Below, in pieces: positions 49,381 through 51,490 of a DNA stretch of 64,000 bases (positions within the stretch are counted from its first letter, which is position 1; each line of letters opens with the position of its first letter). The notes beneath the pieces are model-generated. The model searched no databases. It was given only the letters and a program-made list of their open reading frames with translations, and was not told where the DNA came from. The DNA comes from Escherichia phage vB_EcoP_PE006, in sequence record OQ938541.1. One strand, written 5' to 3'. The translations under genes and the position numbers were made by a program.

Positions 49381-51411
49381 TTAACCTCTATTCAATGAAC
49401 ATTTAGGAGAATTACAATAAACTTGATTCATAGAACCAAGCGTACAACTTTCAGCATCGCGCCACGGAATCTGCTTAAAACACTCTGAGCAGTAGCCGAG
49501 GGTTGACCACATGGCTTTGGTGAAGTCAGTGCTTCGGTTTCCGTCGAAGCTGACAACAGTTTTGCGGAGAGCTGTTCGTGATTCAGGAAACACACCTGCT
49601 TTCTCAGCAGGTTCCTCCTTTTTTGGCTTAGTTGAGATTGCAAAAACACTGTTGCTACGTTTCTCAACATAAGCATCAACAACATCCTCCAGAGTGATGC
49701 CTGTCTGTTTCGCTGAGGAAGGTAATACAGTCATACGACCAATCATATCTTCAGTTACACGTAAAGCAAATTCAGGACGACGGGCGTTTGTTGTATCTGT
49801 TGCTTTAATCCAGATATAACCATCTTTGATCGTAGCATTAGACACTTTCTTCTTTACATCTACAGCGCAGACTTTACAGATATCTTCACCACGAAGACGG
49901 CTGAGTTCTTCATCAAACTCGTTTTCTGTTTTAACTTCACCACAGATTTCACAAACACCGATAGGAGTTTCCTCCTCTTCTTCATCCTTTGGTTTAGTCA
50001 AACCTTCCAGACATTCAGGGTGCCAGTAGCATTGATATGCGAAGACTGCTTTAGGTGCATCCTTCCAATCAATGTGTTTGTCACAACCACCACAATCACC
50101 ATGAGAGTGCGCTTCCCAGAATTTACGAGTGATAGTAACGCCATTCTTGTTGACGAAACTATCATTCATATCAAAAGGGATATCATCATCAAAGTCAGCA
50201 GTAGTAGACTCAGGCTCCTTTTTCTCCAGAGATGGGTCAACAAAACGACCTGCTGTGATTACTAAACGAACCATAGCATTAACTTCGGAGATGCAGGATA
50301 CTGTCCCACGGTAAACAATTTTAGGGTCTTTCAGGGCATCCTGATAAGCCTTAATGTCTACGTTATGAACATCACCCTCGATATACTCTTGAGACTTCTC
50401 ATCGTAGATATAACCGATCATCTTACCACGAGAAGGAACAGCACCAGCTGTTGCATAAGGAACAAACTCATGTGGTGTGATTTCTACAGTCATGTCGCGG
50501 CGAATGTCAATGTTTCGATCGCTTGCGATTTTGTTTTGACTTACCACTGCGTTTCTTCGACGAACGTCTGCCGCTGTCACTCCCGGCTTCGTGTCGTAAG
50601 GATTGCTTGTACTGCTTTTTGAGGAACTTTGATAGTTGCTTTGGCTGTAGTTGTTCGAGTAGTAATTGCCCCAACGATTGATTACCGTAAAAACCGGAAG
50701 CTCGTGGGCGACCTCTTCAACCAGAGTCATGCTGTTGTTTGACATATCAAAGATATACTCTGTACCAACTTTACATTCAAAGTGCTCATCAATTCGGTTC
50801 TTGTGAGACTTAGAACGCTTCAGAATCCACATCAACATATCTTCTTCAGAAGCACCAAACCAATCTCTGTTACAACGTGCGAGATGGAAAGGACGCTCTT
50901 CGTTACGGATGATATGAAGGCGGTTATCAGAAGCATCATGCCAGATTAAGGTGAAAGCACCATCCAGCTTTTGAATAGTCTCTGCTGCACCAATAGTATT
51001 AATAGAGTGGCAGATGTTCTCACTATCTACCTCGAAGTTTTTACTGTCAGGTAACAGATCTTGGTCCATCAAGGTTCCGTTATGAACCAGAGTGATGTTA
51101 CCATGTTGGAAAGGATGGGCGTTCTTGGCGTTAACTGCACCTTTCGTTGCATGACGGCTGTGACCAACAATCCATGAAGGTGCTACAGTGTAAGCTGTTT
51201 CACCAGTGGTGTGCTTCTTGTACTCATCTTGAAGGATGAATGCGAAAGAAGGAAGTGCCTCTTTATAAGTGAAGACTTCCTTAGTGCTCTTACGCTGACC
51301 AAAGATACCAGAGGAATGTTGCCCTCGGAATACCCCAGCATAAAAGAGTTGGTTAAATACGTCTAAATCGGTGCTTGACAGATTACCGCCAGCTAATACG
51401 ATGCCACAAAT
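49381..51411 (-). CDS. class-II (Ntn, Cys1) glutamine-amidotransferase-like domain fused to a ~450-aa Cys-cluster domain; probable non-AUG (AUU) start
   Basis: Upstream of the track start the frame encodes CGIVLAGG ... FRGQHSSGIF ... WIVGHSRHATKG ... HPF ... LVHNGTL ... DSE; no ATG/GTG/TTG precedes the Cys; AUU with AGGUGG SD 8 nt upstream; no PP-loop SGGxDS in the C-terminal part. Confidence 0.6.
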   Translation of the reverse strand: MCGIVLAGGNLSSTDLDVFNQLFYAGVFRGQHSSGIFGQRKSTKEVFTYKEALPSFAFILQDEYKKHTTGETAYTVAPSWIVGHSRHATKGAVNAKNAHPFQHGNITLVHNGTLMDQDLLPDSKNFEVDSENICHSINTIGAAETIQKLDGAFTLIWHDASDNRLHIIRNEERPFHLARCNRDWFGASEEDMLMWILKRSKSHKNRIDEHFECKVGTEYIFDMSNNSMTLVEEVAHELPVFTVINRWGNYYSNNYSQSNYQSSSKSSTSNPYDTKPGVTAADVRRRNAVVSQNKIASDRNIDIRRDMTVEITPHEFVPYATAGAVPSRGKMIGYIYDEKSQEYIEGDVHNVDIKAYQDALKDPKIVYRGTVSCISEVNAMVRLVITAGRFVDPSLEKKEPESTTADFDDDIPFDMNDSFVNKNGVTITRKFWEAHSHGDCGGCDKHIDWKDAPKAVFAYQCYWHPECLEGLTKPKDEEEEETPIGVCEICGEVKTENEFDEELSRLRGEDICKVCAVDVKKKVSNATIKDGYIWIKATDTTNARRPEFALRVTEDMIGRMTVLPSSAKQTGITLEDVVDAYVEKRSNSVFAISTKPKKEEPAEKAGVFPESRTALRKTVVSFDGNRSTDFTKAMWSTLGYCSECFKQIPWRDAESCTLGSMNQVYCNSPKCSLNRG

Positions 51412-51490
51412 TTTCTAATCCACCTGAAGGGTAAACCCTTTCATCTAATTAACCTTTAAATTGTGCCCCTTTATCAGAGGCACCCATTGA

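Follow-up and report, generated by a model that had tools for sequence, protein, structure and literature searches.

A putative AUU start codon in a glutamine amidotransferase gene of Escherichia phage vB_EcoP_PE006 and recurrent AUU/AUC starts among its phage homologues

Where does translation begin in a gene whose product should carry a catalytic cysteine as its first residue, when no ATG, GTG or TTG stands before the codon of that cysteine? The question is raised by a glutamine amidotransferase gene on the minus strand of Escherichia phage vB_EcoP_PE006 (sequence record OQ938541.1), of which a stretch of 64,000 nucleotides, here called the window, was analysed. Around the 5′ end of the gene, the minus strand reads ATG AAA GGG TTT ACC CTT CAG GTG GAT TAG AAA ATT TGT GGC ATC GTA. 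A sequence-only reading of this stretch had described a short upstream open reading frame (uORF, MKGFTLQVD) closed by an in-frame TAG and followed by AAA ATT TGT, and we found this description exact to the base. The same reading had placed AGGUGG, a candidate Shine-Dalgarno (SD) sequence, 8 nt 5′ of the AUU, and this position was verified too (Table 1). It had also claimed that no canonical start is in frame before a distant TTG. The list of open reading frames (ORFs) bears this out: 3′ of the TAG, the first ATG, GTG or TTG in the frame is the TTG at 51072-51070, and a start there would cost residues 1-112, including Cys1 and the beginning of the match to GATase_6 (residues 76-176). From comparison with related phages, we consider it very probable that translation of the amidotransferase starts at the AUU (51411-51409).

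The window belongs to a phiEco32-like podophage (Kuravirus, Gordonclarkvirinae) with 96-98% nucleotide identity to phages 172-1, NJ01, phiEco32 and others, and the gene is the orthologue of phi32_83 of phiEco32. The product matched two Pfam families, GATase_6 with 55.1 bits (cut-off 27; E = 1.1e-14) and GATase_7 with 27.4 bits (cut-off 25). In addition, a profile of the N-terminal domain matched the glutaminase domains of GlmS, PurF and AsnB in PDB (E values from 3.6e-5 to 6e-3), with the HxRxATxG, NAHP and HNG motifs lined up. Among the relatives, C1-G2-I3-V4 was invariant in one alignment (A1) and C1-G2 in another (A3), and the motifs of the catalytic domain encoded upstream of the TTG were invariant as well. 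In class-II (N-terminal nucleophile, Ntn) amidotransferases, Cys1 has to be the free N-terminal residue, and a CGIV-type N-terminus is a hallmark of the class. Judged by the position of Cys1 and by the domain family, the predicted product is a class-II (Ntn) glutamine amidotransferase.

Several lines of comparison point to the AUU. The ATT aligns with the ATG of Salmonella phage 7-11, of Cronobacter phages GAP52 and CsaP009, and of the metagenomic loci L016-L018, all of which read ATG TGT/TGC GG behind an ordinary SD. Furthermore, the codons between the ATT and the TTG are under purifying selection. When the window was compared with KBNP1711 or SU7, the proportion of nonsynonymous differences (pN) in codons 2-113 was 0.13-0.15 and that of synonymous differences (pS) 0.67-0.78, which corresponds to a ratio of nonsynonymous to synonymous rates (dN/dS) of about 0.09; in codons 114-191, the ratio was 0.07-0.08. 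No stops or frameshifts were found in codons 2-113 across three genera. Because the ratio in codons 2-113 matches that in the downstream part of the domain, and because a product starting at the TTG would not impose such a constraint, these codons appear to be translated. In addition, loci L033 and L069, with about 30-37% protein identity to the window, likewise read ATT TGT GG, and their spacers (GGAUGAGUAAAUU in L033 and GGAUUAGAAAAUU in L069) are nearly identical to or the same as that of the window (GGAUUAGAAAAUU). The curators of phiEco32, SU10 and Bas90 chose the ATT start independently, which we count as support. Together with the SD spacing and the start-capable codon found before Cys throughout the family (see below), the ATG alignment and the purifying selection support the proposal of the sequence-only reading that initiation at AUU would give Met-Cys.

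The leader of the gene is also strongly conserved. A 63-nt leader was found in 97 phage records, of which 67 were identical, 28 had one mismatch, and two, both of Aeromonas phage BUCT695, were about 92% identical. Direct reading of Nieuwekanaalvirus and Suseptimavirus relatives showed this single mismatch to be synonymous, with GGC and GGT exchanged in the Gly2 codon. The ATT itself was unchanged in all 97 records. About 56 nt, from TTAAAGG through TGTGG, are invariant among Kuravirus, Nieuwekanaalvirus (KBNP1711 and EP335) and Suseptimavirus (SU7 and ECBP2), while identity between these genera is only 74% and 70% over the first 112 codons of the gene, where synonymous sites are saturated (pS 0.67 and 0.78). 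Thus, the leader seems to be under tighter constraint than the protein it precedes. It is present as a single copy, and no other copy was found elsewhere in the 64-kb window. In BUCT695, whose protein groups with that of the ATG-type GAP52, the same leader carries a handful of substitutions (two of them inside the uORF) and the same ATT.

It should be noted that some points weigh against a start at the AUU. All of the support for it is comparative, and the searchable literature yielded no N-terminal peptide, ribosome-profiling or reporter data for the gene or its orthologues. As an SD, AGGUGG is of moderate strength only (-5.9 kcal/mol), and the SD of BUCT695, AGGCGG, is weaker. The predicted hairpin that abuts the SD is by its fold alone not energetically significant (z -0.2), so its support comes from comparison: SD-abutting hairpins with unrelated stem sequences stand at the same position in L033, L069, L098, L106 and L113, and the BUCT695 change in this hairpin falls in the loop. 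Finally, the orthologue in SU10 (gene 85), for which mass spectrometry gave 9 peptides (counted here in favour of the AUU), is listed in the proteomics table with 63.8 kDa, which fits the TTG-truncated form of 563 residues (PMC4281155). The S1 table of the same paper and the GenBank record give 677 and 676 residues (PMC4281155). The figure of 63.8 kDa is uninformative, because it is an expected mass from a database, and the SU10 proteomics cannot separate the two starts.

How could such a start work? From the comparisons we infer initiation itself, the removal of formylmethionine (fMet), a sensitivity to initiation factor 3 (IF3), and roles of the hairpin and the uORF. The AGGUGG lying 8 nt upstream, in an A/U-rich spacer, would position the 30S subunit, and the initiator fMet-tRNA would pair with AUU with the third base mismatched. 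Methionine aminopeptidase permits removal of Met when the residue at position 2 is small. Since the next residue here is Cys, removal is allowed, and deformylase and methionine aminopeptidase would strip the fMet and expose the Cys1 nucleophile; the expected free-amine peptide is CGIVLAGGNLSSTDLDVFNQLFYAGVFR. The AUU would be a deliberately weak start, expected to be sensitive to IF3, that keeps the enzyme at a low and tunable level, and the resemblance to the thrS-infC junction described below suggests low-level, IF3-sensitive expression as the most likely purpose of the AUU. The invariant leader, with its SD-abutting hairpin, SD and A-rich spacer, may partly compensate for the weak codon. 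The uORF, whose stop lies 3 nt from the AUU, may supply some re-initiating ribosomes in the manner of thrS and infC, and would not be essential.

A larger part for the uORF has also to be considered, namely that the AUU is reached mainly by termination-reinitiation. Ribosomes would start at the uORF AUG (51444), melt the hairpin, stop at the UAG, and restart, as 30S or 70S, 3 nt further on. This alternative had been put forward in the sequence-only reading, and its geometry does fit: the stop of an upstream ORF lies only a few nucleotides from the start, with stop, 3-nt gap and AUU arranged as in E. coli thrS-infC (UAA GGU AUU), where the shares of reinitiation and de novo initiation are about equal (Osterman 2013, PMC3592434). 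The uORF has an AUG preceded at 8 nt by AAAGG, and none of the 95 Gordonclarkvirinae records shows any change in it. However, it is not conserved wherever the weak start is conserved. L069 has the same spacer and an in-frame UAG but no upstream AUG, L033 has only AUG-UGU-UGA in its place, and the uORF of BUCT695, the only variant, is without an SD and has two substitutions, both nonsynonymous (2/2). Furthermore, ATT/ATC starts are preceded at 0-6 nt by the end of an ORF no more often than ATG starts (10/25 versus 22/69), and the end of an upstream gene is nearby less often in ATT/ATC genes than in ATG genes (8/25 versus 47/69, p = 0.002). In addition, two of the three bases of the uORF AUG (U and G) take part in the hairpin stem. 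Since other AUU/AUC lineages lack the uORF and no enrichment was seen, reinitiation is not required; as the main route to the AUU it is possible but rather unlikely, and the uORF is probably an accessory, not conserved outside the clade of the window. The distance of 33 nt from the upstream ATG to the ATT, common to the window and L033, was considered as a signal and rejected: it is treated as a coincidence or a remnant of a shared ancestor, because L069 has no ATG there.

The uORF is also in frame with the enzyme, and a start at its AUG followed by readthrough of the UAG would give a 12-residue propeptide, MKGFTLQVD-X-KI, whose autocatalytic cleavage would expose Cys1. Ntn amidotransferases of the propeptide type do exist, such as the PurF of B. 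subtilis and that of alphaproteobacteria, in which ..HEE is cleaved from CGVFG. However, no continuous ORF runs through a propeptide here, because the in-frame TAG (51417-51415) interrupts it, and the 64-kb window yielded no tRNA gene and hence no suppressor. In L033, two in-frame stops separate the upstream AUG from Cys, and L069 lacks the upstream AUG. True propeptide genes carry a Glu codon before Cys within a long ORF, whereas here the codon is always a start-capable one, and the SD stands at the right distance for the AUU. We consider readthrough very improbable, and the same applies to the view that the glutaminase domain is dead, with a 563-residue product from the TTG (51072) alone and the 112 codons upstream as a decaying remnant. 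Many annotations do start at the TTG, and the 63.8 kDa of the SU10 table (PMC4281155) would agree with it, but a decaying remnant would hardly keep a dN/dS of 0.09 in codons 2-113 next to saturated synonymous sites, free of stops and frameshifts across three genera, with invariant catalytic motifs upstream of the TTG and an invariant leader. Least probable of all, to the point of being negligible, is that the TAG or the ATT arose through faulty sequencing or assembly, or that a frameshift or a gene-60-like hop joins the pieces. The concern about a base-call error at the TAG, raised earlier from the sequence, is settled by the 97 independently deposited records, since all of them carry the same TAG and ATT. 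A hop would find no matching take-off and landing codons (GAU stands before the UAG, and none lies downstream), no Rfam recoding element came near threshold, and the other frames have no upstream ORF from which a frameshift could start. In L033, UGU-UGA, a hairpin and a UGU 33 nt later had looked suggestive of a gene-60-like bypass; this candidate was rejected, as a matched codon pair is missing from the window and a hop with dipeptidyl-tRNA would be implausible.

With initiation at the AUU as the preferred reading, it can be asked how common such starts are in the family. About 115 homologous phage loci were considered overall. Viral contigs were scanned twice, the second time with a diverse alignment of the N-terminal domain, which yielded 80 loci. 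In the 115 loci and in both scans, the codon before Cys1 was ATG, ATT, ATC, TTG or GTG, and no other. For instance, there were 51 loci with ATG, 14 with ATT, 6 with ATC, 8 with TTG and 1 with GTG in the second scan. ATT or ATC preceded Cys1 in 26 homologous viral-contig loci, and also in BUCT695, L154 and L156. The share of ATT/ATC was 20/80 loci in the second scan, 21/83 clusters at about 70% identity with the scans pooled, and 12/59 units at 50% identity. Four of the 70%-identity clusters are mixed (ATG/ATT twice, ATC/ATG and ATC/TTG), which shows recent switching of the start codon. For 18 of the 26 ATT/ATC loci, a propeptide is no possible explanation, since no canonical start lies between an upstream in-frame stop and the ATT or ATC.

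The ATT/ATC genes also differ from the ATG genes in what precedes the start, in tests that were not fully corrected for phylogeny. The SD was stronger in ATT/ATC genes (mean -7.7 versus -6.2 kcal/mol, p = 4e-4), and so was the structure directly 5′ of it (-5.3 versus -2.9 kcal/mol, p = 3e-4). Both differences held with one value per cluster at 70% or 50% identity (p = 0.0006-0.005; p = 0.005 for the SD at 50%). The modal SD spacing was 7 nt in every start-codon class of the family. As a control, bacterial genomes were scanned, and the homologues recovered were PurF, which had either ATG-Cys (Campylobacter) or a propeptide ending in Glu-Glu before Cys within a long ORF; GAA or GAG stood before Cys in 41 of these loci. 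The phage-type matches of the bacterial scan in which the preceding codon was read (L154 and L156) both had ATT. Taken together, we tentatively propose, with a little less than even confidence, that phage Ntn-amidotransferases form the largest natural collection of AUU/AUC starts. They would be built on a module of hairpin, strong GGAGGA-type SD next to it, 7-nt A/U-rich spacer and AUH, which would imply selection for weak, IF3-sensitive initiation with an output that tracks the translational state of the host during infection.

An exchange of start codons may be visible in Paundecimvirus. The amidotransferase genes of Pseudomonas phages O4 (L106, ATC) and PA11 (L101, TTG) are about 95% identical, and the homology breaks exactly at the start codon (around position 598). 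By its sequence, the leader and the start codon appear to have been exchanged as a unit.

Among known systems, E. coli infC comes closest to the phage element, which it resembles in its AUU start, its GGAGGA-type SD ending 7 nt before the start, its in-frame stop 3 nt before and its A/U-rich spacer. The thrS-infC junction read from K-12 is UUGGAGGAAUAAGGU-AUU; for comparison, infC was taken as GGAGGAAUAAGGU-AUU, the window as AGGUGGAUUAGAAA-AUU and L069 as GGAGGAUUAGAAA-AUU. In infC, the AUU confers sensitivity to IF3, and reinitiation and de novo initiation both contribute (PMC3592434, PMC2268962). In E. coli reporters, AUU was six- to eight-fold weaker than AUG, an A/U-rich sequence boosted AUU about three-fold, and excess IF3 inhibited initiation at non-canonical codons (PMC3592434, PMC2268962). 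However, there are differences. The upstream ORF of infC is the full-length thrS gene, whereas the phage has a nine-codon uORF and an additional SD-abutting hairpin. Moreover, IF3 senses its own level, which makes the logic of autoregulation clear, and the phage amidotransferase is without a known logic of this kind.

ATT starts have also been given for E. coli pcnB (AUU; Binns & Masters 2002, as cited in PMC3592434) and for E. faecalis ebpA (PMC4447247). Like the phage gene, both have a rare ATT that limits expression and an annotated canonical start that lies downstream and truncates the protein. They are single cellular genes with experimentally proven starts, whereas the phage start is a prediction in a family with AUU/AUC in about one quarter of its lineages. 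With respect to the protein, E. coli GlmS, PurF and AsnB share the N-terminal CGIV, a Cys1 that must be freed, and the R-x-A-T-x-G, N-A-H-P and H-N-G motifs, which align with GlmS (1xff). However, these cellular enzymes start at ATG or have a propeptide, and the phage protein has a long, CxxC-rich C-terminal extension and not a synthase domain. The propeptide-type PurF of B. subtilis and alphaproteobacteria represents the other route to an N-terminal Cys without Met-Cys; it needs a continuous ORF, whereas the phage frame has the TAG, and a start-capable codon instead of Glu, before Cys.

Is the ATT start new? A coding sequence (CDS) of 2031 nt from ATT is annotated in phiEco32 (EU330206, 2008; RefSeq NC_010324), SU10 and Bas90, so this start had been called before. 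A CDS over the leader is also annotated in LAMP and several other BASEL phages, while most of the 97 leader records have no CDS there. The gene was annotated from the TTG in NJ01 and Paul, and from other internal codons in 172-1, KBNP1711, EP335, SU7 and BUCT695. Thus, the earlier expectation that gene callers truncate this gene is borne out by most records, with the TTG or another internal start; phiEco32, SU10 and Bas90 are already full-length. In Pseudomonas phage O4 (ATC), the CDS is 36 codons short, and its TTG-type relative PA11 is annotated correctly. As a result, most deposited relatives show a protein without the catalytic Cys and without up to 112 residues. To correct the annotation, it would be enough to extend the CDS as far as the ATT or ATC that immediately precedes TGY-GG in the CGIV motif.

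Papers that discuss or test the AUU start, or the use of AUU/AUC across the family, were not found in the searchable literature, whose coverage does not include Savalia 2008 and Iyer 2009. Mechanisms of this kind are well known (infC, pcnB, ebpA), and the recurrent AUU/AUC pattern at the level of the family may be the new part. A single AUU start is unsurprising to translation specialists, whereas it is unusual for about 25% of a phage enzyme family to have AUU/AUC starts on an infC-like module. The weak start is invariant across genera and the leader is more conserved than the protein, which argues that the dose of the enzyme is tightly set. If the family-wide preference for AUU/AUC is confirmed, it would offer many independent natural cases in which a non-AUG start is tuned by SD, spacer and adjacent hairpin. 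Because the Cys1 anchor fixes the position of the start, the family would then also be a natural reporter of non-canonical initiation in uncultured phages.

Table 1. Features at the 5′ end of the amidotransferase gene and around it, in window coordinates
Feature	Coordinates	Strand	Remarks
Full-length class-II (Ntn) glutamine amidotransferase gene (predicted)	49381..51411	-	ATT start to TAA stop; 676 codons + stop, 2031 nt
TTG, codon 113, first canonical in-frame start	51070..51072	-	ORF 49381..51072 in the ORF list
TGT, catalytic N-terminal Cys1 of the Ntn glutaminase domain	51406..51408	-	Follows ATT directly
Putative initiation codon ATT (AUU)	51409..51411	-	Directly 5′ of the Cys1 codon
In-frame TAG closing the uORF	51415..51417	-	3-nt gap (AAA), then AUU
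uORF of 9 codons, ATG..TAG, MKGFTLQVD and stop	51415..51444	-	ATG at 51444-51442; AAAGG 8 nt 5′ of ATG
Shine-Dalgarno AGGUGG	51420..51425	-	Core GGUGGA 51424-51419; 8 nt to AUU, 7 nt counted from the GGA end
Predicted hairpin UGAA(A)GGG-UUUA-CCCUUCA	51425..51443	-	Begins at U and G of the uORF AUG; abuts the SD
A/U-rich motif TTTAAAGGTTAATTAG 5′ of the uORF	51445..51460	-	Contains the SD-like AAAGG of the uORF; invariant in the clade
8-bp hairpin right after the amidoligase stop	51463..51483	-	Folded; compensatory changes in SU7 and ECBP2
Upstream amidoligase gene, phi32_84 orthologue	51491..52594	-	Ends in TAA; stop 79 nt before AUU

Other pairings and signals were looked for in the leader. 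An alternative SD-sequestering hairpin, GGUUUACC/GGUGGAUU, taken from the minimum free energy fold, was rejected, as two substitutions in BUCT695 break its pairing without compensation; a long-range pairing of GGUUAAU with AUUAGCU is likewise not kept in BUCT695. In the hairpin after the amidoligase stop (51463-51483), GUGCC/GGCAC is replaced by GCGC/GCGC in SU7 and ECBP2, that is, by a U-A to C-G change and a paired deletion. This hairpin has no U-tract and is annotated as a terminator in one relative; it may be a processing or stabilising element instead of a terminator. When the leader was scanned for sigma-70 promoters and terminators, neither a terminator nor a promoter on the minus strand came up. 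Against Rfam, it had no match near threshold, the best one being astro_FSE with 14 bits against a threshold of 70 bits.

A motif TTTAAA(T/G)GT(A/T)AA..TAG recurs 20-50 nt 5′ of the amidotransferase start in both Gordonclarkvirinae and Grimontviridae; besides the window (51445-51460), it stands in L007, L008, L009, L010, L016, L018 and L033. Related TTTAAATGTAAA(T)TAG motifs stand 5′ of ATG-type homologues. In the window, the TTTAAA-type motif had 3 matches against 2.4 expected, which is no excess over chance. In Grimontviridae, the motif takes the form AAATGTAAA and is similar to tAATGTAtA, the promoter element of phi32 gp36, but no promoter is reported at this site: the phi32 gp36 promoters lie upstream of genes 6, 13, 26, 40, 58 and 68 and not of gene 83 (PMC8948821), and the promoter and terminator table of SU10 has no entry at the leader position.

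A second mini-ORF of 12 codons (51449-51487, minus strand; ATG GGT GCC ... GGT TAA) overlaps the hairpin at 51463-51483 and stops 4 nt 5′ of the uORF ATG, so that the gene 84 stop, mini-ORF, uORF and AUU follow one another in a chain. Versions of this mini-ORF are kept in KBNP1711 and SU7 despite indels. The mini-ORF may be a chance occurrence.

The gene stands in a conserved cluster made up of COOH-NH2 ligase, hypothetical protein, amidoligase, amidotransferase, two small ORFs and an ATP-grasp enzyme. In BUCT695 (L009, 2305-2510), amidoligase gene and leader are separated by an insert of about 200 nt that contains broken ORF fragments, one of them with a match to HTH_3 (E = 5e-7). Pseudomonas phage UFV-P2 has an HNH endonuclease gene at the same intergenic position (PMC3890496). 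Homing-type insertions at the junction of amidoligase and leader might explain how leaders move between lineages.

Escherichia phage myPSH1131 (L236) has a tandem duplication of 76 nt in the N-terminal domain (about 395-470), which breaks the frame as 76 is no multiple of three, and its record has no CDS there. This is either an assembly artefact or a knocked-out gene. The leader had matched myPSH1131 in two pieces, and this was due to the duplication within the coding region, not to the leader.

The C-terminal third of the amidotransferase (49381-50300, minus strand) encodes the CxxC pairs CGGCDKH..CYWHPEC, CEICGE..CKVCA and CSECFKQ..CNSPKC, which suggests zinc-ribbon-like modules in place of a synthase domain. 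The proteins of L033 and L069 also close with Cys-rich tails.

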